Positions 1 through 35,362 of a stretch of DNA of 35,654 nt are shown here, piece after piece. The DNA comes from a virus. Numbering within the stretch: position 1 is the stretch's first letter; each line of letters starts with the position of its first letter. Both the position numbers and the translations under genes were made by a program. The DNA is taken from UHGV virus genome UHGV-0232315, one strand, 5' to 3'. The notes beneath the pieces were generated by a model. That model saw only the letters and a list, made by a program, of their open reading frames with translations. It did not search any database and had not been told where the DNA came from.

Positions 1-60
1 CAAAAATCAGAACCCACGAATACAACCGCTCAATGGATGTCATCAGTTGAGGTGACTTTT

Positions 61-294
61 ATGCGCATTGAAATAATGATCGATAAAGAGCAGAAGATTA
101 GCCAGTCTACCCTGGACGCCCTTGAATCCGAGCTTTACCGCAATCTGCGCCCCCTGTATCCCAAAACGGTAATTCGTATCCGAAAAGGTAGCTCTAACGG
201 TGTGGAACTGACCGGACTGCAACTGGACGAAGAAAGAAAACAAGTGATGAAAATTATGCAGAAGGTGTGGGAAGACGACAGCTGGCTGCATTAA
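61..294 (+). CDS. dinI: DinI-family protein (DNA-damage-inducible protein I-like)
   Basis: Translation MRIEIMIDKEQ...QKVWEDDSWLH resembles DinI over its whole length; GAGGTG RBS 5 nt upstream of ATG 61; reading frame is also open upstream to window position 1 (alternative ATG 37). Confidence 0.7.
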   Translation: MRIEIMIDKEQKISQSTLDALESELYRNLRPLYPKTVIRIRKGSSNGVELTGLQLDEERKQVMKIMQKVWEDDSWLH

Positions 295-383: not shown

Positions 384-941
384 TCACATAAACATCTGGA
401 TTTGCTCGTTTTTTAGTTGGTTGATTTTTTCGCGCAATCTGATCTTTTCATCAGCTTTTTCCAAAGAGGCTGGTGACATGCAGTTAATCAAAGCGTCAAG
501 GTGCTCTGGAGATTTGATAATAAAGAACTTTTTGTATTTATTAACAAAAACGACAGAGCATTTTTTACGTTTAAGAAGCTCAATCACGTTACTCAGAGTA
601 CCCGTGCTCTTCGTATCCCAAACCATTAATCCATAATCGGCTTCTTCTGCCATTTTGAGATCTTTCGCAGTGAAAAACGCGCGAGTGCCGGCTGCATGGC
701 TAGTACTTACTACATGTACAGGCCATGAGCCAAGATTATTGCGCGGTTTTTCTGAGCTACTGAATACTGTGGCTTTTTCACATCCAAGTTCTAGCAATAC
801 GCGTTGAACAGATGCATCAACACCATTGGCATCACCAACTACAATACGAAAACGCGAGTTAACAATTTTTTTCAGACGATCCACGATGAGTGTGTCAAGG
901 TTTTTGATGGTTATTGAACCAGCAACAAATACCGTAGTCAT
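384..941 (-). CDS. DprA/SLOG-like Rossmann-fold protein (ShosA-like candidate)
   Basis: ORF-track protein with VFVAGS, IVVGDANGVD (DprA-type GxARGID-like) and STGTLSNVIE (LOG-type PGGxGT-like) motifs; ORF-track start 953 is TTG, I place the start at ATG 941 preceded by GGAG; 2 nt after the upstream gene stop (translational coupling). Confidence 0.6.
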   Translation of the reverse strand: MTTVFVAGSITIKNLDTLIVDRLKKIVNSRFRIVVGDANGVDASVQRVLLELGCEKATVFSSSEKPRNNLGSWPVHVVSTSHAAGTRAFFTAKDLKMAEEADYGLMVWDTKSTGTLSNVIELLKRKKCSVVFVNKYKKFFIIKSPEHLDALINCMSPASLEKADEKIRLREKINQLKNEQIQMFM

Positions 942-943
942 CA

Positions 944-1525
944 CTATCTCCAAGTCAAAGCTGCAACATAAATGCTTCTAACCTTAGTATAATCGTTTAG
1001 CACAGCACAAGCAGCCTCCATAGATGCGCCTGTATGGTAAAGGTCGTCAATGATAAGGACATTCCAGTTGCCATTATTCTCAATACTGTCATTAACAGAG
1101 AACGAATTACCCAGCGCCGTGATTTTCTCTTCTTTTGTATTCAGGTTCTTTAGCGAAGCCCCGCCGGGGGCTTTCAACAAGAGGTCATCGAAGCATGGTT
1201 TGCCAACTAGTTTGGCTAGTTCCTGAGCTATTTCGGTCACTGGCTGGCGTGCACGCTGATTAGATGCAGCCATTGGAACGATAAACCCGACATTGCTGAA
1301 ATGAGGAAAGGCATGCTCTGCTAGGCATTGGGCTAAAGGCTTAACTTGTGACCAATCGTTACGGTATTTAAGCTGGAAAAGAGATTCGCCTACCTCAGTA
1401 CGCTCAGTCTCAAACCGCATATGTCCCCACTCATCGTAACCAATGGGAATGCTGCGGATGCTGTGTTTATCCATCGCAAGACCTAATTCCCAATTTCCAA
1501 CAATCTGTTTTATGTTGACTTTCAT
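944..1525 (-). CDS. Phosphoribosyltransferase (PRTase)-fold protein (ShosT-like candidate)
   Basis: Classic type I PRTase PRPP-binding motif VLIIDDLYHTGASM near the C-terminus; ATG start 1525; first gene of a two-gene minus-strand operon. Confidence 0.65.
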   Translation of the reverse strand: MKVNIKQIVGNWELGLAMDKHSIRSIPIGYDEWGHMRFETERTEVGESLFQLKYRNDWSQVKPLAQCLAEHAFPHFSNVGFIVPMAASNQRARQPVTEIAQELAKLVGKPCFDDLLLKAPGGASLKNLNTKEEKITALGNSFSVNDSIENNGNWNVLIIDDLYHTGASMEAACAVLNDYTKVRSIYVAALTWR

Positions 1526-1948: not shown

Positions 1949-4285
1949 ATGATTGAAGAGGTAGTTATTGACAAGGTAGGCTCATATAATGGCCCTACGC
2001 AGCTTTTACATGGACTTTCTAAATTTAACTATTTATATGGAGCTAATGGTGCAGGTAAAACAACTATAAGTAAAATTATTAATGACCCTGAACAATATCC
2101 AACATGTCCGATTAAATGGAAAAATAATATATCTTTAATAAGCTACGTATATAATAAAGATTTTGTTGAAAGAAATTTTAGTCAAGATAAAATTAAAGGT
2201 GTATTTACCCTTGGTAGCGATCTTAAGGAGGATGAAGAGAAACTAATATCTCTTAAAGAAGAAAAAAATAAGCTAATGGAATCTATTATAGCAAAGGGAA
2301 AGTTAATAGATGGTGGTGATAATGAATTAGGCGTTATTAAAAAAATCGAAGACCATGAAAAATCTTTTAAAGATTCATGTTGGAAGCAAAAAGTAAAACA
2401 TGACAATGTGTTCTCAAAGGCTTTTGAGGGATTAAGGAATAGTAGTGAAAAATTTAAAGCCAGAGTGTTGGCTGAGTATGAAAATAATACATCAGAAGTT
2501 TGCTCAATAGCAGAGTTAATTGAGAAAGCAAAAATTGTTTTTTCTACTGAATTGACATCACATGTATCAATTACAATTCCATCCTTCAATGGGATAGATG
2601 ATATTTTGAGTAGGGAAATTTGGAGTGAGCGTATTCTAGGGAAAAAAGACGTTAGTGTTTCAGACTTAATTACAATGCTCAATAACAGTGATTGGGTTAA
2701 GGAGGGTTTAACATATTTCAGTAAATCTAATCCCAAGTGCCCATTCTGCCAGCAGGATGTAAATGATAATATATTTGATAATCTTTCATCATATTTTGAT
2801 AAAACATATGAGTTAAAAAAAAGAGAAATCGATGCATTGGTTTTACAATATGAATATCAACTTAATAATATCTTGAAGGCGATAGATGATATAAGGGCGA
2901 TTAAATCTCCATTCATAAATTATGAAGTGTTTGAGGATAAGGCTAAGATAGTATTATCTGAATTAAACAAGAATTTTGAATTGGCAAAAAATAAACGCAA
3001 TTTTTTAAGTGAATCAGTTCATTTTAGTGACTTAAGTGAAGTTGTTGATGATTTTATTTCTTTTTTGAATGATTCAAATCTATTGATAGATAATAATAAC
3101 AAAATATATAGTAATAGAAAGGTAGAGGCTAGTAATCTTTCTAAGCAGATATGGGCATATATCGTAAAGGTGGAGTTAAAGTCTGAAATAACTTCTTACC
3201 GTAGCAAATCTGATAAATTTAATAGGACGTTACAAGGACTTAAATCTGGGATAGAAGAAGACAAAAAGAAGTTAATGTTAAATACTTCGGCTATTGAGGC
3301 AATTGAGTCTAATAAAACCAGTACTCTTCCAACTATTACAAAAATTAACAAGATTCTGGACTCTTATGGCTTCAAAAATTTTTACTTAAAACCCTCCGAA
3401 GATAAAAAGCATTATATGATAGTAAGAGATAGTGGAGATAATGCTCGTACAACCCTTAGTGAGGGAGAAAAGACATTTATCACTTTTTTGTACTTTTATA
3501 GCCTTGTTAGAGGGAGTGATAATGCATCAGGTGTTTTAGATGATCGTGTTGTAGTATTTGATGATCCAATTTCAAGTTTAGATAGTGATATTCTGTTTAT
3601 TGTAAGTTCGTTGATTAAAGATTTAATGGAGGATGTTCGTAAGGATGAAGGAAATATTAAGCAAATTATATTCCTTACTCATAATATTTATTTTCATAAA
3701 GAGTTGACTTTTAATACCAAAAGATCCGGTAATCAAGCAATGAAAGAGGAGACTTTTTGGATTGTAAGGAAAAAAGGGAAGGTTTCATATCTTGAAAAGT
3801 GCGAATCAAACCCAATAAAAACGTCTTATGATTTGCTCTGGTGCGAATTGAGAAGAACAGACATTAATAATAATACTATACAAAATACAATGCGAAGGAT
3901 TTTGGAGAATTACTTTAAGATATTAGGTGGGATGGATATTAGGAAGCTTGAGTGTCATTTTTATGGTGATGAAAAAATCATATTTAAATCTTTAGTGTCA
4001 TGGATTAATGATGGTTCCCATTTTGCAGGTGATGATCTTTATATGAATTTAGATACGGAGTCTGTGCAAAAATATTTAATTGTTTTTCAGAAGATATTTG
4101 AATGTAGTGAGCATACTGCCCATTACAAAATGATGATGGGTGAGTTTTATAAACCGTTAAATGAGTCACTTCATCTACAAGATGAGTTTGATATAGATGA
4201 TAGTGCGAATGATGAGTATGCTTCGTCAAAAATTGAGATAAAAGATGGAATAAACACATCTCTACATAGCAACACATATTTGTAA
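1949..4285 (+). CDS. ABC-type (AAA_13-like) ATPase with coiled-coil CxxC hook; RloC/PrrC-like candidate anticodon nuclease
   Basis: Walker A GANGAGKT (aa 32-39), Walker B/D-loop VVVFDDPISSLD, internal CPFC motif between Walker motifs, C-terminal R-x3-E..H arrangement (RRILEN ... H); very AT-rich relative to phage backbone; GAGG RBS. Confidence 0.55.
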   Translation: MIEEVVIDKVGSYNGPTQLLHGLSKFNYLYGANGAGKTTISKIINDPEQYPTCPIKWKNNISLISYVYNKDFVERNFSQDKIKGVFTLGSDLKEDEEKLISLKEEKNKLMESIIAKGKLIDGGDNELGVIKKIEDHEKSFKDSCWKQKVKHDNVFSKAFEGLRNSSEKFKARVLAEYENNTSEVCSIAELIEKAKIVFSTELTSHVSITIPSFNGIDDILSREIWSERILGKKDVSVSDLITMLNNSDWVKEGLTYFSKSNPKCPFCQQDVNDNIFDNLSSYFDKTYELKKREIDALVLQYEYQLNNILKAIDDIRAIKSPFINYEVFEDKAKIVLSELNKNFELAKNKRNFLSESVHFSDLSEVVDDFISFLNDSNLLIDNNNKIYSNRKVEASNLSKQIWAYIVKVELKSEITSYRSKSDKFNRTLQGLKSGIEEDKKKLMLNTSAIEAIESNKTSTLPTITKINKILDSYGFKNFYLKPSEDKKHYMIVRDSGDNARTTLSEGEKTFITFLYFYSLVRGSDNASGVLDDRVVVFDDPISSLDSDILFIVSSLIKDLMEDVRKDEGNIKQIIFLTHNIYFHKELTFNTKRSGNQAMKEETFWIVRKKGKVSYLEKCESNPIKTSYDLLWCELRRTDINNNTIQNTMRRILENYFKILGGMDIRKLECHFYGDEKIIFKSLVSWINDGSHFAGDDLYMNLDTESVQKYLIVFQKIFECSEHTAHYKMMMGEFYKPLNESLHLQDEFDIDDSANDEYASSKIEIKDGINTSLHSNTYL

Positions 4286-4334: not shown

Positions 4335-5363
4335 TTAGTTAAGCTCATATGGAGAAAATTCTATAAGTTTTTCCCCGAGCCATGCATTAATTTCTCTAAA
4401 TCGTTTTTGCAAAGGAATTAATTCATTTATCACAAAAACCTTACTAGCCTTCTCCACATCCCCAAATCCCCCGACATTATTAGGCATAATCCCCATCATT
4501 TGCGGTGGAACGCGGTGTGCCGCCATCATGTCATCGCGACTAACATTTTTGATATTCAGAAACTCATCCTTCGCTGCGACTTCTGATAACGGGATAATCT
4601 GAAGCCCGTCCTTTTTGCCGTTAGGTGAGTACATAAACAGGTTGCGGAAGTTGCCCGGCCCTTTGGCGCTTTTCATCGCATTGCGGAGGTTGTTCACATC
4701 CTCCTGGTTTTGCGCGGCATCGGTCATGTACATGATAAAGCCCGCATGACTGCCGTTAATGTAATACTTGCGACGGAACAGCGTGGCGGACTCGTTGAGC
4801 AGGGCTGACGGAATGGCAGAAAGATAACCGGGCAGGCCGTAGATCTCCTGATTAATATCCGGTTCCATCAGATGAAAAATGCTGCCTTTCGTGAACTGAT
4901 ACGGCTGGGTTGTCATACCGTATTGCACAAACCAGTAGGTATCCAGGTCTAATCCGCGTCGGGTGTATTTTGCCAGCGCAGGTTCAAGGGCGATCACTTC
5001 ACCGAAGCGGTTCGTGCGTTTCTCCAGATAGGCGTTGCCAAATACCAGATAGTCCTGCACAAAACGCGAAAAAGCTTGCTGGCTGAGCAGAGGATGAGGG
5101 ATATAGGTACTGGTCAGAATGTTGCACTTTACTGCAATCGGGGAACTGTGATGCACGGCAGCGCGGAAGGTGCGCGCCAGTCCGTCAAAGCTGACGGGCG
5201 GCTCATACCAACGGTCCATCTGTACGCATTCCACATAGTCCAGTAATTCTCGGCGGTCCAGAACAGGAACGGGATCGCCGAAGCTGAATGCTTCGGCTGT
5301 AGTCTGGTTTTTATGCTGGATCTGATTCGTCGCCGCAGTGCGGTTTTTCTTACTCTTTCCCAT
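4335..5363 (-). CDS. Q: Portal protein (P2 gpQ-like)
   Basis: Protein MGKSKKNRTAA... with P2 Q-like length and position; ORF-track start 5366 is TTG, ATG at 5363 overlaps the stop of P (TGATG). Confidence 0.9.
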   Translation of the reverse strand: MGKSKKNRTAATNQIQHKNQTTAEAFSFGDPVPVLDRRELLDYVECVQMDRWYEPPVSFDGLARTFRAAVHHSSPIAVKCNILTSTYIPHPLLSQQAFSRFVQDYLVFGNAYLEKRTNRFGEVIALEPALAKYTRRGLDLDTYWFVQYGMTTQPYQFTKGSIFHLMEPDINQEIYGLPGYLSAIPSALLNESATLFRRKYYINGSHAGFIMYMTDAAQNQEDVNNLRNAMKSAKGPGNFRNLFMYSPNGKKDGLQIIPLSEVAAKDEFLNIKNVSRDDMMAAHRVPPQMMGIMPNNVGGFGDVEKASKVFVINELIPLQKRFREINAWLGEKLIEFSPYELN

Positions 5364-7129
5364 CAAAAAATCTCCACAATATTGCTGGTATTGGCGGACT
5401 CGCCCTGCAGCGGTTCGTTAAACAGTGCGTGCATCGTTGCCCAGGCCAGATCGGCGTGGCTGGCTTCTTCGCTGCGGCTGGCTTCATAGGTTGGGCGGTT
5501 GCCACTGGCGGTGGTTGCGCGACGGATTGCCATAAATGACTGCGCAATGTCGGTGTGCCCGGCGTCAAACTCCAGACGGCGGTGGCTGATAATGTCGTAG
5601 GCCTTGAGTACCAGGGCGTTTTTAACGTTGGGGTTGTAGACAAACTCCCGGACGGCAGGAAAGAACGCTTTCACGTTCTCGTAAACCCCGTGACCAACGC
5701 CGGTTGAGTCGATACCGATATAAGTCACGTTGTACTGCTCGGTAAGTTTTTTGATGGCGTCAGCCTGGGCGCGGAAGTCCATCCCGCGCCACTGGTGACG
5801 CTCAAGAATGCGGAACTTACCACCCGGCACGGCTGGCGGTGCCACCACCACGCATCCGGCGCTGTCGCCGTTTTGCGTACCTTTTGCCGGGTCATAACCG
5901 ATCCACACTTCGCGCCAGCCAAACGGGCGCAGCGCCAGTGCATGAAAGTCGGTCCAGATTTCCCAGCTGTCTACCATGCACGCCTGCAGCTCGCTGAGAG
6001 GGAACACGGACGCGAGATCGTCCACAAACTCGCACATCAGCAGGTTCTGGTATTCGTCCGGGCTGTACTCCATGCGCAACTGGTCAAGGTCGAACAGGTT
6101 ACAGCCGCCGCGCACCGCATCTTCCACGGTGACTATCTGGCGGTATTGCCCGTCTGCGCACAGCAGGCCGGGGGCCAGATTTCTGTGGGACAGGTCGATG
6201 TCCACCTTATCGGCTTTGTTGCGCCCACGGTTGAACAGCGCACCGGACCAGAACGGATAAGCACTGTGTGTCAGACTGGATGGCGTGGAAAAATAGGTTT
6301 GTCGCCATTTTTTGTGAATAGCCATACCGGAAGCCACTTTGCGCAGCTCCTGGAATTTCGGTATCCAGAAATATTCATCCAGATACAGGTTGCCGTGGTA
6401 ACTCTGGGCCGTGCGGGCATTGGTGCCGAGGAAGTAAAGCGTGGCCCCGTTAGGAAGCACCATCGGATCGCCTTTCAGCTCCACCTCGACTTCTTTGGCG
6501 AAGTCGATGATGTACTGCTTAAAGACGTGGGCCTGTGCCTTACTGGCGGAAAGGAAAATCTGGTTACGTCCGGTAAGCAGAGCGTCAATCAGGGCTTCAC
6601 GGGCAAAGTAAAAGGTCGCGCCGATCTGGCGTGATTTCAGCAGGTTGCGGATGCGGTTGGTTTTTCCGGCTTCCCACCAGTGGCGCTGGTAGTTGAACAT
6701 GGAGGAATGGAAGATTTCTTCCAGCTTCTCAATCTGTTCATCGGTGAAAACATTCTTTTCCGGCTGACGGCGCGGGCCTTTGTTGCGGTTGGCGACGTTA
6801 GGGTTTAAGTCGGCTTCGTTGCCGCCATTGTTAAACTTGCCGATGCGCGCGTGGCGCTCCGACTGGCGCGCCAGCAGGTCAATCTCTTTGAAATCTTTCC
6901 CTTCTTTGTGCTCCTTCATAATGAGCTGGCAGTAGCGTGCGGCGGTGGTGAGCTGCATCTGATCCAGCGGCCCATAGTCACCCCACTTGTCGCGTTTTTT
7001 CCAGCTATGAACGGTTGCAACTTTCTCGCCCAGCATTTCAGCAATGCGGGCGACGCGGTATCCCTGAAAGTACAGCAGCATGGCCTGCCGACGGGGATCG
7101 AGATCTGCGGGTGTCAGTGTGGTGTTCAT
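5363..7129 (-). CDS. P: Terminase large (ATPase) subunit (P2 gpP-like)
   Basis: 588-aa product upstream of Q in the divergent P2 arrangement; ATG 7129. Confidence 0.9.
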   Translation of the reverse strand: MNTTLTPADLDPRRQAMLLYFQGYRVARIAEMLGEKVATVHSWKKRDKWGDYGPLDQMQLTTAARYCQLIMKEHKEGKDFKEIDLLARQSERHARIGKFNNGGNEADLNPNVANRNKGPRRQPEKNVFTDEQIEKLEEIFHSSMFNYQRHWWEAGKTNRIRNLLKSRQIGATFYFAREALIDALLTGRNQIFLSASKAQAHVFKQYIIDFAKEVEVELKGDPMVLPNGATLYFLGTNARTAQSYHGNLYLDEYFWIPKFQELRKVASGMAIHKKWRQTYFSTPSSLTHSAYPFWSGALFNRGRNKADKVDIDLSHRNLAPGLLCADGQYRQIVTVEDAVRGGCNLFDLDQLRMEYSPDEYQNLLMCEFVDDLASVFPLSELQACMVDSWEIWTDFHALALRPFGWREVWIGYDPAKGTQNGDSAGCVVVAPPAVPGGKFRILERHQWRGMDFRAQADAIKKLTEQYNVTYIGIDSTGVGHGVYENVKAFFPAVREFVYNPNVKNALVLKAYDIISHRRLEFDAGHTDIAQSFMAIRRATTASGNRPTYEASRSEEASHADLAWATMHALFNEPLQGESANTSNIVEIF

Positions 7130-13090: not shown

Positions 13091-13621
13091 TTACGCACTT
13101 AATAAACTTAAATAACTTTTTATGCTTTGGCAAAAAGGGAAAAGGTCTATTTTAATTTTCCAGTTTTTTTTGTTTTGAACCCCAGAAGCAATAATAGAAC
13201 CATCCCAATATTTTATTCCATTTTTGCCGGTCTTTTTTGTTAACTCAAAACTTAATGCGTGAATAATTTTATTGCAGCATTCGCGTATAGAACCTTTAAC
13301 ATGACCATCTATAACAAAAAGTATATTTTCATGTTCTTCAAATGCTTCTTTCTCAGGTGAGTAATCTGGGTTCCACTCATGTTCATTAGTGTCTTGGAGA
13401 ATTCGTAGTTTTGTACAAAGGCTAATAAGATTGTTGCTAATGGTATATTCCAACCATCCGTTGTACGATAACTCCTCCATTTCAAATTCAGTTACTATAG
13501 AACCATCATATACTTTCTGTGTGGAATATATACGCTGTAAATAAAATTCAGATGAACAGCATAATTGCTCAATTATTCTTGCGTGTTCTTCTATAGCGTA
13601 ATAATCAATTGGATGGCTCAT
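13091..13621 (-). CDS. Hypothetical protein encoded by an AT-rich island between S and V (P2 orf30 position)
   Basis: ORF 13091-13660 on the strand opposite to the tail operon; likely start ATG 13621 (MSHPIDYY...) with GAAAGG RBS; no motif I recognise. Confidence 0.6.
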   Translation of the reverse strand: MSHPIDYYAIEEHARIIEQLCCSSEFYLQRIYSTQKVYDGSIVTEFEMEELSYNGWLEYTISNNLISLCTKLRILQDTNEHEWNPDYSPEKEAFEEHENILFVIDGHVKGSIRECCNKIIHALSFELTKKTGKNGIKYWDGSIIASGVQNKKNWKIKIDLFPFCQSIKSYLSLLSA

Positions 13622-13652
13622 TCTTTTACCTTTCTTCGATTGGAATTGTATT

Positions 13653-13670
13653 TGTGTCATTTACCACACA
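13653..13670. promoter_or_regulatory. TGT-N12-ACA dyad upstream of V (candidate late promoter element)
   Basis: TGTgtcatttaccacACA; centre is only 55 bp from the V ATG and overlaps the 5' end of the antisense island ORF. Confidence 0.4.
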
Positions 13671-25891: not shown

Positions 25892-26944
25892 TTACGGGGT
25901 AATGCCAACCGCTGCCGCCACTTTGCCGCCACTTGGCAGCGTTGCCAGAGGATTGAAACGGAGCGCCGTTTCCAGATGATCCGGTGCCAGATGAGCGTAA
26001 CGCATAGTCATTTTTATATCGTGATGTCCGAGGATTTTTTGCAAAGCAAGGATATTTCCACCCGACATCATGAAATGTGCCGCAAACGTATGGCGCAGAA
26101 CGTGTGTCAGTTGACCGCGAGGGAGCACGATTGACGTTTTTTCCATCACGGATAAAAATTGAAAATAGCAGTCTGTGAAGAAATTGAACCCATCAAGCGC
26201 CATGATCTCTTCATAAAGCTCTTTACTGATAGGGATGCTTCTGTTTTTCTTCCCCTTCGTTCTTACAAAGGTAATTCGGTATTTAGTCACCTGTGATCGG
26301 GTAAGGTTTATTGCTTCTCGCCAGCGTGCGCCTGTGCTTAAGCATATCTTGACTACCAGTGCCAGAATTGGGTCCTGACGTTTGCAATCAGCCAGCAGTT
26401 CAACAATCTGCTCATGGGTAAGCCATGCCATCTCTTTTTCTGCGATGGTGAATTTTCGCATGTTCTCCAGTGGGTTTGGATACGACCATTCGCCCAGGCG
26501 GGATAGTTCGCTAAAAACACTACTTAGATAGCTTTGCTCCAGGTTAATGGTGACCGGGCTGGCTCCTTTCTTCCATTTCTCGCTGAAGTAGATCTCACCT
26601 GTCAGGCGTTTATCTCGATAGTGGGCAAACATTTTAGAGGTGAGATCGGTTGCAAGAGGATTGCCCAGAGCGTCAACCATCAGCAGCAATTTGTCATAGA
26701 CATGCTGCCCAGCAGTCAGAGATTTACCATGTAATTTGAACCATAGCTCAACCACGTCTTTCAGTGTTCGACGATCCACTGATTCACCTAGCCAAGGCTT
26801 TGCTTCGGTTTCTTCCATCGTGTGACGCTCAAAAGCCAGAGCTTCGCCTTTGGTGGCGAATTGTTTACGCACACGACGTCCACTACGTCCGGCGGGATAA
26901 CATTCGCACAGCCATTTTCCTGTGGTGAGTTTTCGTACTGCCAT
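25892..26944 (-). CDS. int: Tyrosine integrase
   Basis: 350 aa MAVRKLTTGKWLCECYPAGRSGRRVRKQF... with C-terminal ...HVLRHTFAAHFMMSGGNILALQKILGHHDIKMTMRYAHL catalytic region (R..H-x-x-R..Y). Confidence 0.9.
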   Translation of the reverse strand: MAVRKLTTGKWLCECYPAGRSGRRVRKQFATKGEALAFERHTMEETEAKPWLGESVDRRTLKDVVELWFKLHGKSLTAGQHVYDKLLLMVDALGNPLATDLTSKMFAHYRDKRLTGEIYFSEKWKKGASPVTINLEQSYLSSVFSELSRLGEWSYPNPLENMRKFTIAEKEMAWLTHEQIVELLADCKRQDPILALVVKICLSTGARWREAINLTRSQVTKYRITFVRTKGKKNRSIPISKELYEEIMALDGFNFFTDCYFQFLSVMEKTSIVLPRGQLTHVLRHTFAAHFMMSGGNILALQKILGHHDIKMTMRYAHLAPDHLETALRFNPLATLPSGGKVAAAVGITP

Positions 26945-27026: not shown

Positions 27027-28358
27027 TCATTGGAGCAAGAAAACTTTTAAGGTGTTTTTGAATATTCTAACAGGGTCTTCTACACCTGCATTTCCTTTTA
27101 AAATATGATAATCACTTATTTCAGCCCATCTGTTTTTTTCATCGTTTTCAGAAGGAAGTAAAGGAGAACCTTCTGGCATATATTTATAAGTTATACCAAA
27201 TAATGCATAATAGTAGATGTTGATGTTATATTGATCTGTCTGATATGGGAGTCTATTAACACCGAAGAAATTAATTATTAATTGTGCATCTATTTTATCT
27301 TCTACGTAGTTAAGGGCCAGTTCACGACCAAACGAATAAAGAATTACTGCAAGGGTTCGATAACAGCAATAGCCTGGTATAAATTTATTGCTGATTTCAT
27401 TTTGAGATAAAATTTGATAAATTTCTAGATATCTTGATAAGGTTTCAACTTCCCGTAGCGACAAGCCTTTTAGTTCGATAAATTTTTGAACTATATGAAT
27501 ACTACTTTCTCCAATTTCTTTTAGTCTTTCAGACTCGTTACATAGCATTCTAAAATGAGAGTTCGAAGCCAAAATTTTATCGTAATTGTTTTCAGTGAAA
27601 GTCACTGGCAGGCTGTAAGTGAATTTTATAAATTTATCAAGATATCTTTCTGAGTCAACACCTGCACCGTAAATATGATTTATTGATGCTTTCAATTGTG
27701 AGATGTTAGCAACTAACAAGAAGTTAAGATTTTCAGTGTCAAAAACATGTTTTATATTTTCGATGATAGAGATGGCAAAGCTTGGTTTACAACGGTCAAG
27801 TTCGTCAATGATAATTGTTATTTTATTTTCGCTAGTTAGTTCAGCAAGTACTTCCTTGAGAGCAAGCAAATGTTTCTTTGCTTCAATATGATCATCAAGC
27901 AGTGCTTCTACAGTACCATCTATAGCTGAGTTAGCCGCATCTTTAATAGCATCTTCGAATTCATCCGCAATATCATCTGCATTTTGTTTTAAAATCCACC
28001 CAGCGCCAGCTTTGAGTACAGTTTTAAGTCCAAATCTCAATGCTGGTAATGCCTTTGATATTAATTCCTTCTTTTCACTCTCTGGATATAATGCAACTAT
28101 TGCAGCCATTATAGTAAGTATGGGAGCATCATTATGATCTTCAGTAAATGCATCAATATATACTACTTTATGCCCAGATTCATTTTTTTCAATCAATGCC
28201 GCTAATTTTTTTGAAAATTCGGTTTTACCGGTACCCCAGTCCCCATCGATAACAATAGGGGATATTTTTAAGGGGGACTCGAGTAAGCTTATTATTTTTT
28301 CAGCAATGATTTTTCTATTATACTCATCTCTGTTTTCAAAAGTCATATCATTATTCAT
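27027..28358 (-). CDS. KAP-family P-loop NTPase
   Basis: Walker A GDWGTGKT (GxWGxGKT KAP signature) and Walker B IIIDELDRC; ORF-track start 28367 is TTG, I place the start at ATG 28358 after AAGG; AT-rich. Confidence 0.65.
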   Translation of the reverse strand: MNNDMTFENRDEYNRKIIAEKIISLLESPLKISPIVIDGDWGTGKTEFSKKLAALIEKNESGHKVVYIDAFTEDHNDAPILTIMAAIVALYPESEKKELISKALPALRFGLKTVLKAGAGWILKQNADDIADEFEDAIKDAANSAIDGTVEALLDDHIEAKKHLLALKEVLAELTSENKITIIIDELDRCKPSFAISIIENIKHVFDTENLNFLLVANISQLKASINHIYGAGVDSERYLDKFIKFTYSLPVTFTENNYDKILASNSHFRMLCNESERLKEIGESSIHIVQKFIELKGLSLREVETLSRYLEIYQILSQNEISNKFIPGYCCYRTLAVILYSFGRELALNYVEDKIDAQLIINFFGVNRLPYQTDQYNINIYYYALFGITYKYMPEGSPLLPSENDEKNRWAEISDYHILKGNAGVEDPVRIFKNTLKVFLLQ

Positions 28359-28369
28359 ATGAAGCAACC

Positions 28370-28578: not shown

Positions 28579-29142
28579 TTAATAATTGACGATCGCGCTT
28601 CTAATTTTTCCTATGATATCAATTTCATCTATTTTGCATTCAAAGGAACTGCTGCCACCATCGACATTTAGACGACGTCCCGGCAGTCTTGTCAGATTCC
28701 TGATAGCAACCTCGCCATCAATATCAACGATCCACTTACCATCACGTACATCCTCATAATCCGAATCACAGATAAACTCTGATGCGCCATCGATCACAAC
28801 AAAAGGTTTTTTTAGTTTTTCAGGCAAAAAGTTGTTGTCGAAAATGTAGTAACCATCAGGAAGTAGTTTTCCGCTTGATAAAATCTTCCTTTCGATCTCT
28901 TTTGTGTTTTCTTTTTGTGAACTTTCTTTTGAACCTTGCCCAGTAGTTAGCCACTCTAGCGACGTGCCGGTTTCAAGTGCACATTGGATTACCCATTCTG
29001 CCGGGAATGAATCACGCATATAGCGCGTGGCTAAGGTGCTTTTAGAAATGCCCAAATGATCACACAAAGCTTGTCTTGTCTTGAAACCATAGGCTTCAAC
29101 CATGCGCTCTATGGCCCCACGACCGCCTTTTTCCAAATTCAT
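28579..29142 (-). CDS. cI: Immunity repressor CI (phage 186 CI-like)
   Basis: ORF 28579-29148 (GTG); ATG 29142 after GGAG; N-terminal HTH region and C-terminal ...[27 protein letters not shown]... resembling 186 CI. Confidence 0.8.
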
Positions 29143-29267
29143 GGTCACTCCAAGTGAACTTTTACCTTGACGATTTCATGATGTGATCGTATGTTTGCAG
29201 TGTTCACATAATACAAACGATCAGTATTCATCCTGATTAATCATTGCTAAAAGAGGAATGTTGCATC
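29143..29267. promoter_or_regulatory. Lysis-lysogeny switch region (divergent pL/pR-type promoters and operators)
   Basis: Intergenic region between divergent cI and apl; dyads GTGAAC(29155-29160)/GTTCAC(29212-29217) and TGATCGT(29184-29190)/ACGATCA(29217-29223); two GATC sites. Confidence 0.5.
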
Positions 29268-30845: not shown

Positions 30846-31072
30846 TGGCTGATGCAATGGATCTCGTACAGCAGCGCGTTGAAGAAGAACGCCAGCGCCA
30901 TATCCGTGCTGCCCGTGCCAAAACACCGGGCGTGTCACGCGTACTTTGCATTGAATGTGAAGCGCCAATTCCGCCAGCACGACGCCGCGCCATTCCGGGA
31001 GTGCAGCTTTGCATTACCTGTCAGGAAATCGCAGAACTGAAAGGCAAACATTACAACGGAGGTGCTGTATGA
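30845..31072 (+). CDS. TraR/DksA-family C4 zinc-finger protein
   Basis: CIECEAPIP...CITCQ four-Cys motif at the C-terminus of a 75-aa protein; TAATG overlap upstream and ATGA overlap downstream. Confidence 0.7.
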   Translation: MADAMDLVQQRVEEERQRHIRAARAKTPGVSRVLCIECEAPIPPARRRAIPGVQLCITCQEIAELKGKHYNGGAV

Positions 31073-31917
31073 GCACCATCCTGAAATGGGCGGGAAATAA
31101 AACGGCCATTATGGCAGAACTGAAAAAATACCTTCCTGCTGGCCCGCGACTGGTTGAACCTTTCGCGGGTTCCTGTGCAGTGATGATGGAGACGGATTAC
31201 CCCAGCTATCTGGTTGCGGATATTAATCCTGATTTAATCAACCTCTATAAAAAGGTTGCCGCTGATTGTGAATCGTTTATATCTCGCGCCAGAGTTTTAT
31301 TTGAGAACGCAAACAGGGAGATGGCTTATTACAACATAAGGCAGGAGTTTAATTACTCAACTGAAATTACTGATTTCATGAAAGCAGTATATTTCCTGTA
31401 TCTCAATCGTCACGGTTACCGTGGTTTATGTCGCTATAACAAGAGCGGGCATTTCAACATTCCCTACGGTAATTATAAAAATCCGTATTTCCCTGAAAAA
31501 GAAATTCGTGCATTTGCAGAAAAAGCCCAGCGGGCAACATTTATCTGCGCCAGCTTCGATGAAACGCTGGCAATGTTGCACGCGGGGGATGTTGTGTATT
31601 GCGATCCGCCTTATGACGGTACGTTTTCCGGCTATCACACTGACGGCTTCACTGAAGATGACCAGTATCACCTGGCATCCGTTCTTGAACATCGGTCATC
31701 AGAAGGACATCCGGTCATTGTTTCTAACAGTGACACATCCCTGATCCGTTCGCTGTATCGCAATTTCACTCACCACTACATCAAGGCAAAACGCAGCATT
31801 GGCGTGTCAGCTGGCGAGAGTAAATCTGCAACAGAAATCATTGCCACCAAATCAGCTGGGTGGTTTGGTGTCGATTTTGCCAGCGGCTCTGACCGTACCG
31901 TTGAGGTACGCGCATGA
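31069..31917 (+). CDS. dam: DNA N6-adenine methyltransferase (Dam/D12 class)
   Basis: ORF 31009-31917; ATG 31069 after GGAGGTG; N-terminal KWAGNK and catalytic DPPY ([10 protein letters not shown]) motifs. Confidence 0.85.
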
Positions 31918-32924
31918 ATGCTATCGATCCGCGTTGCTTTGCCTCAGGCACCATTAACGTCATCACTACTTCTGGTGGCAAAGATAGTCTCGCTCAATGG
32001 CTAAGAGCCATTGAAAACGATGTTCCGCATATTTCTGTATTTGCCGATACGGGTCATGAACATCCACAGACAATAGAATATCTGGATTATCTGGAATCAA
32101 AGCTGGGCAAGATTATTCGCGTCAAAGCGGATTTCACACGCCAGATAGAAGGGAAACGTAAATTCATTGCGGAAAAGTGGCCCATTTCTCTCGTTGAGGA
32201 ATGTGGTATGTCGACAGATGAGGCTGAGGAACGTATTTACCGGGCACTGGAAATCCTTAAACCAACCGGCGTTCCGTTTCTTGATTTGTGCATGTGGAAA
32301 GGTCGCTTCCCTTCAACAAAAGCTCGTTTCTGCACTTTTGAACTGAAACATGAACCAATACGTACACAGGTAATCGATCCAGCTCTGGATGAATACGATG
32401 AGGTAATCAGCTGGCAAGGAGTCCGGGGGCAGGAATCACCGGAACGTGCATTGTTGCCTGAGTGGGAGGACGATGCAGACAATACTCTGGGGCTGCATGT
32501 TTATCGTCCGATCCTTAATTGGCTGCATGAGGATGTGTTTGCTATTGCCAAACGTCATGGCATTAAGCCTAACCCCCTTTATATGCAGGGATGCAGTCGT
32601 GTCGGTTGTATGCCATGCATTCATGCTCGCAAGTCAGAACTTGGAGAGATTTTCCAACGCTGGCCAGAAGAAATCCGCCGAGTGGCTGAGTGGGAAAGAC
32701 TGGTTGCGGAATGTTCAAGACGTGGCAATTCAACGTTCTTTCCATCCACGCATGATCCGCGCCGTGCTGAAAAACGGATCGAAGTCATAACTGTTGATGC
32801 TTATGGTATTGAAACTTATCGGGACTGGGCCTTAACGACTCGGGGCGGTATGCAGTTTGACCTGCTGGCAGGCATGAATGATAAAGCGGTGTGCAGCAGT
32901 GTATATGCAGGAGTCTGTGAGTGA
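31914..32924 (+). CDS. PAPS-reductase/DndC-like PP-loop ATP pyrophosphatase family protein
   Basis: PP-loop TSGGKDS near the N-terminus, C-terminal Cys cluster [10 protein letters not shown]; ATGA overlap with the dam stop. Confidence 0.7.
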
Positions 32925-35362
32925 CAGAGATCAGCACAGGCCGTCTTGCCGATCCATTTGTCAGTGTAACTTCCGGTAGCATTGAGAATTCTGCCGGGGG
33001 TTATTCGTGGAATTTACCTAAGAAAGCCATTAACCCTTATCTGGACCCGGCGGAAGTTGCGCCGGTTTCTGCGCTTTCAAACCTGATCACTCTGTACGCT
33101 ACCGATAACGAGCAGGAACAACTGCGCCGCGAGGCACTGAGTGATCAGGTCTGGGAGCGTTATTTCTTTAATGAATCCCGTGATCCTGTCCAGCGCGAAA
33201 TGGAGCAGGATAAGCTCATTAGCCGGGCAAAGTTGGCGCATGAGCAGCAGCGTTTTAACCCGGACATGGTCATTCTGGCAGACGTCAGCGCCCAGCCCTC
33301 CCATATCAGCAAGCCGCTGATGCAACGTATTGAATACTTCAGCAGCCTGGGCAGGCCAAAGGCTTATTCCCGCTATTTACGTGAGACGATTAAGCCATGT
33401 CTGGAACGACTGGAGCATGTACGCGACAGCCAGCTATCTGCATCTTTTCGTTTTATGGCAAGCCATGTAGGGCTGGACGGCCTGCTGATTCTGCCTGAAA
33501 TGAGTCAGGATCAGGTGAAACGCCTGTCTACCCTTGTCGCTGCGCATATGAGCATGTGCCTTGATGCAGCTTGTGGTGATTTGTATGCCACCGATGACGT
33601 TAAGCCAGAAGAAATCCGCAATACATGGGAAAAGGTGGCAGCGGAAACCCTGCGTCTGGATGTCATCCCGCCTGCGTTTGAGCAACTCCGTCGGAAAAGA
33701 AACCGCCGTAAACCCGTGCCCTATGAACTCATTCCGGGTTCGCTGGCGCGTATGTTGTGCGCCGACTGGTGGTACCGGAAATTATGGAAAATGCGTTGCG
33801 AATGGCGGGAAGAGCAGTTGCGTGCTGTCTGCCTGGTCAGCAAAAAAGCATCTCCCTATGTCAGCTATGAAGCCGTGATGCATAAACGTGAGCAGCGCCG
33901 CAAGTCACTGGAGTTTTTCCGTTCTCATGAACTGGTGAACGAAGAGGGCGACACGCTGGATATGGAAGACGTGGTAAACGCCAGCAGCAGCAACCCGGCG
34001 CACCGCCGCAATGAGATGATGGCCTGTGTTAAAGGTCTGGAGCTTATCGCGGAAATGCGCGGTGACTGCGCCGTTTTCTACACCATTACCTGTCCGTCAC
34101 GTTTCCATTCTACGCTCAATAACGGCAGACCAAACCCAACCTGGACAAATGCGACGGTAAGACAAAGCAGCGATTATCTGGTCGGCATGTTTGCTGCATT
34201 TCGTAAGGCGATGCACAAAGCCGGGTTGCGCTGGTATGGCGTGCGGGTGGCTGAGCCGCATCATGACGGTACAGTTCACTGGCACCTGTTGTGTTTCATG
34301 CGCAAAAAAGACCGCCGCGCCATTACTGCATTGTTGCGTAAGTTTGCCATCCGTGAAGACCGCGAGGAACTGGGTAATAACACTGGTCCACGCTTTAAAT
34401 CTGAGCTGATAAACCCGCGCAAAGGAACGCCGACAAGCTACATCGCGAAATACATCAGTAAGAACATTGACGGGCGTGGTCTGGCTGGCGAGATCAGCAA
34501 GGAAACGGGTAAATCCCTGCGTGATAACGCTGAATACGTTAATGCCTGGGCGTCTCTGCATCGTGTACAGCAATTCCGCTTCTTTGGTATTCCGGGACGT
34601 CAGGCTTACCGTGAACTTCGCTTGCTGGCTGGTCAGGCGGCAAGGCAACAGGGTGACAAAAAAGCAGGTGCGCCGGTACTGGATAACCCGCGTCTTGATG
34701 CCATTCTGGCTGCTGCTGATGCTGGTTGTTTTGCCACCTACATCATGAAGCAGGGCGGCGTACTGGTTCCCCGCAAATATCACCTCATCAGAACCGCTTA
34801 TGAAATCAACGAAGAGCCAACCGCCTATGGCGATCACGGTATTCGTATTTATGGCATCTGGTCACCCATTGCAGAGGGCAAGATCTGCACTCATGCAGTG
34901 AAGTGGAAAATGGTTCGTAAGGCCGTTGACGTTCAGGAGGCGGCAGCCGACCAGGGCGCTTGCGCCCCTTGGACTCGTGGCAATAATTGTCCCCTTGCTG
35001 AAAATTTGCACCAACAAGGGAAAGACAAATCAGCTGATGGGGATACCAGGACGGACATTACCCACATGGATGACAATGAGTTGCACGATTACCTGCACAG
35101 TATGAGCAAAAAAGAGCGCCGGGAACTGGCTGCAAGGTTACGCCTGGTGAAACCGAAACGGCGTAAAGACTACAAACAGCGAATTACAGACCATCAGCGA
35201 CAGCAGCTCGTCTATGAACTGAAGTCCAGAGGATTTGATGGTAGCGAGAAAGAGGTCGATTTACTCCTTCGCGGCGGCAGTATTCCGTCAGGAGCAGGCC
35301 TGCGTATCTTCTATCGGAACCAGCGTTTGCGGGAAGATGATAAGTGGCGGAACCTGTATTAA
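32921..35362 (+). CDS. A: Replication initiation endonuclease (P2/186 gene A-like, rolling-circle HUH type)
   Basis: 813 aa; GTG start overlapping the upstream stop; HWHLLCF (HUH-type motif) and tyrosine pair YIAKYISK. Confidence 0.85.

Follow-up and report, generated by a model that had tools for sequence, protein, structure and literature searches.

The 35,654-nucleotide UHGV virus genome UHGV-0232315, analysed over its whole length and called the window throughout, is a P2/186-like phage genome that carries two small adjacent genes at positions 384–1525. An earlier note made from the sequence alone had described these genes as a translationally coupled phosphoribosyltransferase (PRTase) and DprA/SLOG-like partner, resembling the ShosTA toxin–antitoxin (TA) system. 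We found both open reading frames (ORFs) at these positions, separated by 2 nucleotides (nt) as the note had claimed, and read from the minus strand, which it had left unstated. The motifs that it quoted are likewise all present: NVLIIDDLYHTGASM at residues 155–169 of the PRTase, and IVVGDANGVD (residues 33–42) and STGTLSNVIE (residues 112–121) in the partner. The features of the pair are as follows.

944–1525, minus strand: PRTase of 193 amino acids (aa), ATG at 1525, TAG at 946–944; putative toxin
384–941, minus strand: SLOG partner of 185 aa, ATG at 941–939, end at 384; putative antitoxin
942–952, minus strand: coupling junction, read from the sequence as ...ACT TGG AGA TAG tg ATG

A conserved coupling junction

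The ATG of the partner lies exactly 2 nt past the PRTase stop codon and is preceded by a GGAG Shine-Dalgarno sequence at 951–948. The junction reads TGG AGA TAG tg ATG, and thus the ribosome-binding site of the partner is encoded by the last Trp-Arg codons of the PRTase. A mechanical ORF list starts the partner at a TTG at 953; we preferred the ATG at 941 because GGAG precedes it and the starts of all homologues agree with it. The same arrangement recurs wherever we found both genes together. The order is PRTase then partner in 81/81 such loci, the two genes lie −4 to +10 nt apart (−4 to +5 nt in 78 loci), and across phyla the partner start has nearly always kept a TGGAG or TGGAA ahead of it. 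The conserved PRTase C-terminus, Thr-Trp-Arg/Lys, doubles as the Shine-Dalgarno sequence of the partner across this range (loci L002–L103). The two genes are therefore translationally coupled, and the coupling is conserved. A terminator scan found no terminator after the partner gene.

Folds and motifs of the two proteins

Neither window protein gave a match above threshold to any Pfam or NCBIfam model. The PRTase reached Pfam Pribosyltran at E 0.01, under the gathering threshold, and scored 24.8 bits against NCBIfam TIGR00201 comF, for which the cutoff is 233.55; all its NCBIfam equivalog scores are far under their cutoffs. Among the 5027 defence models of PADLOC it matched only ShosT (E 9.3e-9) and PsyrT (1.2e-7). 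The same two models were matched by all 29 sampled members of the PRTase family, with best values of 6e-11 and 5e-12, and they were the only PADLOC models matched consistently by the family; the PRTase_III-A model was matched by 1/29. Neither ShosT nor ShosA came up when the Protein Data Bank (PDB) was searched by sequence, whether with single sequences or with family profiles; the only matches were to the generic loop that binds phosphoribosyl pyrophosphate (PRPP) in APRT and HGPRT, at E 0.012 or weaker. Alignment of the PRTase family to ShosT by hhalign, for which our family alignments were shallow (Neff ~2), gave E 0.018 over 23 residues, which is not significant.

The AlphaFold2 model of the PRTase (predicted local distance difference test, pLDDT, 89.3) has a type I PRTase fold. 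Its top structural match by Foldseek was Helicobacter pylori ComFC (7p0h, E 2e-6, TMq 0.58), and ShosT ranked 20th (8zvd, E 9e-5, TMq 0.53). The PRTase has all three of the loops by which ComFC and ShosT are described to bind PRPP, and they are invariant across its family. The pyrophosphate loop is N89-QRARQP-95, in which R91, R93, Q94 and P95 are invariant in the family; a flexible loop spans approximately residues 116–143, where model confidence is low; and the PRPP loop is 158-IIDDLYHTGAS-168, with D160, D161, T165, G166 and A167 invariant. The DD of this last loop is the counterpart of D331/D332 of ShosT. An N-terminal β-domain of approximately residues 1–42 (window 1400–1525, minus strand) is free of Cys and carries invariant D19-K20-H21, G34-H35 and R42 in the place where ComFC has its zinc finger. 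The first 60 residues of the PRTase contain no Cys, and the 4-Cys zinc finger of ComFC is absent; nor did the PRTase show any HAD or Hydrolase match in Pfam. By its motifs and its model, the first gene is predicted to be a ComF-like type I PRTase that is competent to bind PRPP. The type I PRTase assignment of the earlier note is borne out by the ShosT and PsyrT models, by the ComFC and ShosT folds and by the invariant loops.

The partner was modelled with higher confidence (pLDDT 94.7) as a Rossmann core of residues 1–143 followed by a C-terminal helical tail of residues 145–184. Its best Foldseek match in the PDB was the crystal structure of ShosA (8zva, E 1.5e-5), followed by the DprA proteins of H. 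pylori and Streptococcus pneumoniae, and then by a type II LOG and the SLOG domain of ThsA. The sequence models were less telling. The window partner matched no curated Pfam or NCBIfam model, Pfam DNA_processg_A included, and in PADLOC it had no match to ShosA at E values up to 10 and reached PsyrA only at 0.019. Across 31 members of the partner family, 13 gave sub-threshold matches to DNA_processg_A and 10–11 gave weak matches to ShosA or PsyrA (best ~6e-4), the only two defence models that recurred. A match to phrog_289 of PHROGs, annotated as a 'GTP-binding domain' (1.2e-9), is uninformative. The protein is basic, with an isoelectric point (pI) of 9.5, and 9.8 for the core.

Four colinear motifs of invariant residues are common to the partner and ShosA families.

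Motif 1: partner G36-D-A-x-G-x-D42; ShosA G166-L-A-x-G-x-D172-Q
Motif 2: partner P66-R67-N68; ShosA P199-K200-(G/N)
Motif 3: partner F-(F/Y)-T91-A-K93-D94; ShosA F231-V-R-R-N-R236
Motif 4: partner W108-x-x-K111-S112-x-G114-T115; ShosA W250-x-x-K253-S254-G255-T256

In this alignment K200 of ShosA, a RecA contact in the YPKN loop, falls on the invariant R67 of the partner, and G137-T-R139 of ShosA falls on G8-S9-(I/M)10. The LOG motif PGGxGTxxE is unmatched, since the partner reads K-S-T-G-T-L-S-N-V-I-E, with the Glu 6 residues past the Thr instead of 3. The model and its structural matches thus make the second gene a predicted SLOG-fold, DprA/ShosA-like Rossmann protein, and the DprA/SLOG identity proposed in the earlier note is supported by the first ranks of ShosA and then DprA.

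Decay, distribution and prophage setting

If one gene of the pair were toxic and the other its antidote, the two might be expected to decay unequally. Of 80 genome loci ascertained through the partner, 61 retain an intact PRTase immediately ahead of the partner gene, and in 17–19 (~20%) the PRTase is damaged beside a full-length partner ORF. The PRTase may be absent, reduced to its last 20–77 residues, shortened by an in-frame internal deletion (L037), frameshifted (L043, L061) or split by an insertion of 2.6 kb of insertion-sequence type (L012). Such decay occurs in at least 8 genera, and in Pseudomonas (fluorescens group) with at least 5 different truncation end points. The loci with an orphan partner are as follows.

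L012, L019, L037, L043, L050, L052, L057, L059, L061: partner at about 6001–6555
L069, L073, L076, L077, L080, L082, L084, L088: partner at about 6001–6555

The reverse pattern, an intact PRTase with a decayed partner, was not seen in a small PRTase-ascertained sample of 12 viral loci, in all 12 of which the partner is intact. Although the sampling is biased, a PRTase that does harm when its partner is missing would be expected to leave this pattern.

The C-terminus of some partners offers a separate view of the same question. On two plasmids, Xanthomonas pXAM48 and Sinorhizobium pMl2, the gene after the same PRTase encodes a partner that has, in place of its C-terminal tail, a helix-turn-helix (HTH) domain, either a HigA-type 'addiction module antidote' domain (PF21716, 7.5e-23) or HTH_37 (1.8e-19). 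Autoregulating antitoxins are classically built in this way, and the domain assignments suggest, as independent support, an antitoxin role for the partner. HTH-fused partners of these two HTH families were seen on Xanthomonas, Agrobacterium and Sinorhizobium plasmids (L102, 3001–3846; L103, 3001–3840).

Both proteins belong to length-uniform families, with at least 750 (PRTase) and at least 1792 (partner) clusters at 90% identity. With each species represented by one genome, the partner was found to be encoded in 371 genomes, which span Enterobacterales, Pseudomonas, Betaproteobacteria, Acidobacteria, Deltaproteobacteria, Alphaproteobacteria and one metagenome-assembled genome of Peptococcaceae. 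The window allele is present in 16 of 5426 complete E. coli genomes and a second variant in 8, always in prophages or plasmids; all 16 + 8 copies are complete and carry no information on decay. Another E. coli P2-like prophage has a copy of 57/62% identity between its gpD and ogr genes, so that the pair is seen in two different P2 cargo slots. Elsewhere it forms two-gene islands between housekeeping genes (Neisseria dentiae, Morganella) or sits among transposase, integrase and reverse transcriptase genes (a betaproteobacterial copy). Among plasmid records, mostly of conjugative plasmids, the PRTase is found in 63 and the partner in 100, and the family is carried by many Klebsiella and Enterobacter plasmids. 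Furthermore, 12 IMG/VR contigs encode the pair, which is absent from deposited phage genomes at the DNA and protein levels. The pair thus moves as a unit among prophages, plasmids and chromosomal islands.

Two further observations concern relatives of the pair. In Yersinia enterocolitica the pair adjoins a type III retron (PRTase-CE plus winged-HTH effector, RVT_1; L106/L107, 6912–9468), and therefore two different PRTase-based systems are adjacent there. Solitary partner-like proteins, ~37% identical and without a PRTase, are encoded by Mesorhizobium (L104, 3001–3534), Planktothrix and Shinella plasmids near DUF2493, DUF736 and ParA genes; we set them apart from the partner as a different SLOG family, which may be related but have another role.

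In the window, the pair lies between a DinI-like gene, which follows replication gene A, and a conserved element on the side of portal gene Q; the phage genes of the window also include gpD.

37–294, plus strand: DinI-like gene (PF06183, 8.4e-23), downstream of gene A; one boundary of the cargo slot
1670–1824: conserved cos-region element of ~150 nt, containing GGCGTGGCGGGGATACGAG; the other boundary of the cargo slot
1949–4285, plus strand: AAA_13 ATPase of 778 aa (Pfam 9.9e-164; PADLOC candidate PDC-S06, 1e-266)
4335–7129, minus strand: portal Q and terminase P
25892–26944: integrase
28579–29148: CI-type repressor
32921–35362: replication gene A (Phage_GPA, 2.7e-127)

The element at 1670–1824 is the only part of 300–1950 that is common to 41 records of P2-like phages of Klebsiella, Salmonella and Yersinia and to more than 1200 E. 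coli genomes (84–92% identity). We take GGCGTGGCGGGGATACGAG to resemble the P2 cohesive end, and the element is probably the cos site, with the window permuted so that cos is internal. Since this cos-like element separates the pair from Q, the pair is in the cos-proximal A–Q slot, the P2 defence hotspot defined by Rousset et al. 2022. The placement proposed in the earlier note, between gene A/DinI and a putative cos site in a region of defence cargo, is thus supported by the DinI gene, the conserved element and the hotspot. The GC content of the pair (40–47%) differs from that of the phage core (52–60%) and of the neighbouring AAA_13 gene (~30%).

The AAA_13 gene, which stands between the cos-like element and portal Q and has weak similarity to PrrC and LmuB, was taken as separate cargo because, of the 16 E. 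coli genomes that have the PRTase pair, only 2 share it. A KAP-family P-loop NTPase (3.8e-51; 27027–28367, minus strand), a further accessory or defence-type gene of the prophage, is inserted between the integrase and the CI repressor. A Dam-type N6-adenine methyltransferase followed by a PAPS-reductase-domain protein lies just upstream of gene A (31009–32924, plus strand). A 189-aa ORF on the opposite strand in the late tail/baseplate block (13091–13660, minus strand), which has no Pfam match, may be spurious or a small moron.

A candidate toxin–antitoxin module and its known relatives

The reading that we favour, and hold to be rather more probable than all others together, is that the pair is a PRTase-toxin/SLOG-antitoxin module carried as abortive-infection cargo and possibly also acting as an addiction module. 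It is probably a minimal relative of ShosTA and PsyrTA that a P2/186-like prophage carries for defence in its cos-proximal hotspot. In favour of this reading are the concordant PADLOC matches of the two families (ShosT and PsyrT, ShosA and PsyrA), the structural matches, the invariant PRPP site, the four motifs common to the partner and ShosA, the slot and orientation of validated ShosTA, the decay pattern, the antidote-HTH fusions, the sporadic mobile distribution and the deviant GC content. By analogy with ShosT, we hypothesize that the PRTase would be a toxic effector that uses PRPP either to make aberrant phosphoribosyl products or to drain purine metabolism, and that its activity could lead to replication damage and so to the killing or arrest of the cell. 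In uninfected cells the partner, made in step from the same mRNA, would neutralise the PRTase. Phage infection might then remove or overwhelm the partner, through host shut-off acting on a labile antitoxin or through titration by a phage product, and the freed PRTase would abort the infection. Neutralisation by the partner could take more than one route. ShosA is a dimeric SAM-DprA protein that binds single-stranded DNA (ssDNA) and RecA, but not ShosT, and is intrinsically unstable; it needs both R139 and R234 to bind ssDNA and to act as an antitoxin (PMC11961720, PMC12961424). A route of this type, through ssDNA binding and RecA recruitment, is doubtful for the window partner because these key arginines are absent, and it is at least as likely that the partner binds the PRTase directly or acts on its product.

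Several observations weigh against this reading. In the motif alignment, with no structural superposition behind it, R139 and R234 of ShosA are replaced by I/M10 and T91/A92. The SAM domain and the α14 helix with its labile tail are also missing from the partner, which begins at Rossmann β1 and has 185 aa compared to ~330 for ShosA, and the putative toxin has 193 aa instead of the 424 of ShosT, without the N-terminal HAD pyrophosphatase. The sequence relationship of the partner family to ShosA is not significant by hhalign, either with ShosA alone (E 0.032) or with a 30-sequence ShosA-family alignment (E 0.038), and the partner sequence had no sequence match in the PDB. Part of the decay asymmetry comes from ascertainment, since it was the partner that led to these loci, and many of the decayed loci are in related Pseudomonas genomes. 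A promoter scan found no sigma-70 consensus promoter upstream of the PRTase. Finally, the pair is 'system 98' in Table S5B of Rousset et al. 2022 (each protein 1 aa different from the listed sequence) and is not among the systems that were cloned or tested in that study; we found no later literature that tests it.

The alternatives differ mainly in what they ask of the partner. With the same architecture, the SLOG protein could bind or hydrolyse the product of the PRTase, in a LOG-like reversal comparable to DarG/DarT, or could gate the PRTase by sensing a nucleotide. LOG phosphoribohydrolase chemistry is formally the reverse of the PRTase reaction, the ssDNA-binding arginines of DprA and ShosA are replaced, and the invariant, pocket-like GDAxGxD, PRNNxGxW and KSTGTLxN..E motifs are typical of SLOG ligand sites. 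However, STGTLSNVIE does not match the PGGxGTxxE of LOG and spaces its Glu differently, ShosA and DprA come first by Foldseek, the sub-threshold sequence matches are to DNA_processg_A, ShosA and PsyrA and not to LOG, and a basic core with a pI of 9.8 fits nucleic-acid binding; we therefore consider a small-molecule role for the partner rather unlikely. A stronger form of this idea, in which the pair is a minimal PRTase–SLOG conflict core unlike ShosTA, where the SLOG protein chemically erases an adduct (LOG-like, in the style of DarT/DarG) or senses a nucleotide ligand and the N-terminal domain with DKH...GH selects the acceptor, seems to us unlikely outright. The frequency of the pair on conjugative plasmids (63–100 records), the partner variants fused to classical antidote HTH domains and the TA-like decay would also suit a plain addiction module that stabilises its prophage or plasmid by post-segregational killing and has no anti-phage role. 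But the P2 slot is enriched for validated defence systems, among them ShosTA against T7 and lambda, and neighbours elsewhere include retrons, RloB-like genes and integrases, and since stabilisation and defence can coexist, we think it quite unlikely that addiction is the whole function.

Two further explanations dispense with the toxin. ComFC is an ssDNA-binding protein that in several species interacts with DprA, the nearest PRTase structure is this competence protein, and the partner is both DprA-like and basic; the pair might thus protect or recombine incoming ssDNA for the mobile element. We regard such DNA handling as very improbable. The 4-Cys zinc finger of ComFC is missing and the comF score falls far short (24.8 versus 233.6), the DNA-binding arginines of DprA are lost, and the repeated selective decay of the PRTase together with the antidote-HTH fusions fits a TA system better. 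Furthermore, natural competence in the usual sense is not a trait of E. coli. That the PRTase is a housekeeping or auxiliary nucleotide salvage enzyme (ComF/GntX or a purine PRTase), placed in a prophage by chance, is scarcely credible: its RefSeq name is 'ComF family protein' and it has weak matches to the PRPP loops of APRT, HGPRT and PyrR, but it occurs in fewer than 0.5% of E. coli genomes and on mobile elements only, its coupled partner is obligate, all equivalog scores are far under their cutoffs, and its GC content sets it apart from the phage core. The earlier note had set a housekeeping ComF with conserved chromosomal synteny against its own reading; instead we find 16 + 8 copies in 5426 E. 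coli genomes, all in prophages or plasmids, and this sporadic mobile distribution, together with the model scores, effectively refutes a housekeeping ComF.

For ShosT, PsyrT and the PRTase effectors of retrons no acceptor substrate is known as yet, and neutralisation by DprA-like antitoxins is debated. If the favoured reading of a PRTase toxin and SLOG antitoxin is right, the 193-aa and 185-aa proteins, which comprise only a catalytic PRTase and a SLOG core, would offer the simplest system in which to find the toxic product and the neutralisation step, and would indicate that the HAD, helicase and SAM domains of the larger systems are accessories. Because the PADLOC ShosA model misses the window partner, a PADLOC ShosTA call is unlikely, and defence inventories probably undercount a family that is present in at least 371 species genomes and whose PRTase carries the RefSeq name 'ComF family protein'. 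Should the pair prove to be no more than an addiction module, the interest would be routine.

ShosTA is known from E. coli APEC O1 and P2-like phages (Millman 2022, Rousset 2022); taken from the same P2 slot and labelled 'DprA + PRTase', it was validated as giving protection from T7 and lambda (Rousset 2022). ShosT is a 424-aa HAD-PRTase, with the HAD-like pyrophosphatase at residues 1–164; its toxicity needs the PRPP loop and is abolished by mutation of D331/D332, and T7 Gp0.7 triggers the system via the shut-off of host expression (PMC11961720, PMC12961424). Like ShosTA, the window pair is a tightly coupled two-gene operon of a PRTase with a DD PRPP loop and a partner of DprA/SLOG fold, situated in the same cos-proximal P2 hotspot and read in the same direction, which leads from the side of cos to gene A. 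In contrast to ShosTA, where ShosA precedes ShosT with a 1-nt gap (Peduovirus P24C9), the PRTase comes first here, and the window partner has no PADLOC ShosA match and a profile–profile E of only ~0.04 to that family. Thus 'ShosTA-like', as the earlier note had it, holds for the domains, the slot and the coupling, but the pair is not ShosTA itself, given the missing HAD and SAM domains, the inverted order and the replaced arginines.

Other PRTase systems show similar partial likenesses. PsyrT/RqlH is a fusion of a RecQ-like helicase and a PRTase of ~690 aa. The pair shares the PRTase plus DprA-like logic of PsyrTA/RqlHI, and the PsyrT model is matched by 29/29 PRTases while the partner weakly matches PsyrA; however, the helicase is lacking and only positions 538–681 of the 689 in the PsyrT model are matched. 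The nearest fold to the PRTase, that of H. pylori ComFC, includes the N-terminal β-strands that extend the sheet, but unlike ComFC–DprA the pair has no zinc finger and no linkage to competence genes, scores far under the comF cutoff, is mobile and sporadic, and decays like a toxin gene. Type III retron PRTase effectors, OpnC of Ophion and DS-32 are likewise defence-associated PRTases of a ComF-like clade acting as effectors, and DS-32 also pairs its PRTase with a candidate product-reversing partner (NADAR). Unlike these systems, the pair has no reverse transcriptase or non-coding RNA, radical SAM/PHP gene or NADAR gene adjacent to it, and no reverse transcriptase ORF was found between DinI and cos. 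We considered two of them as candidates for the pair itself and rejected both: DS-32 of DefensePredictor, a retron-III-like 343-aa PRTase with NADAR, and Ophion, a three-gene system. Among SLOG proteins, the motifs of the partner are nearer to DprA (YP(K/R)N, WxxKSGT) than to the ligand binders YpsA, LOG, MCP and ThsA-SLOG, from which it differs in having no PGGxGTxxE and no fusion to SIR2, TIR or another effector. The entry in Rousset et al. 2022 is a catalogue line with HHpred-type domain labels, so that the same domain call had already been published. The pair is therefore not categorically new but an already catalogued variant of the PRTase–SLOG systems.

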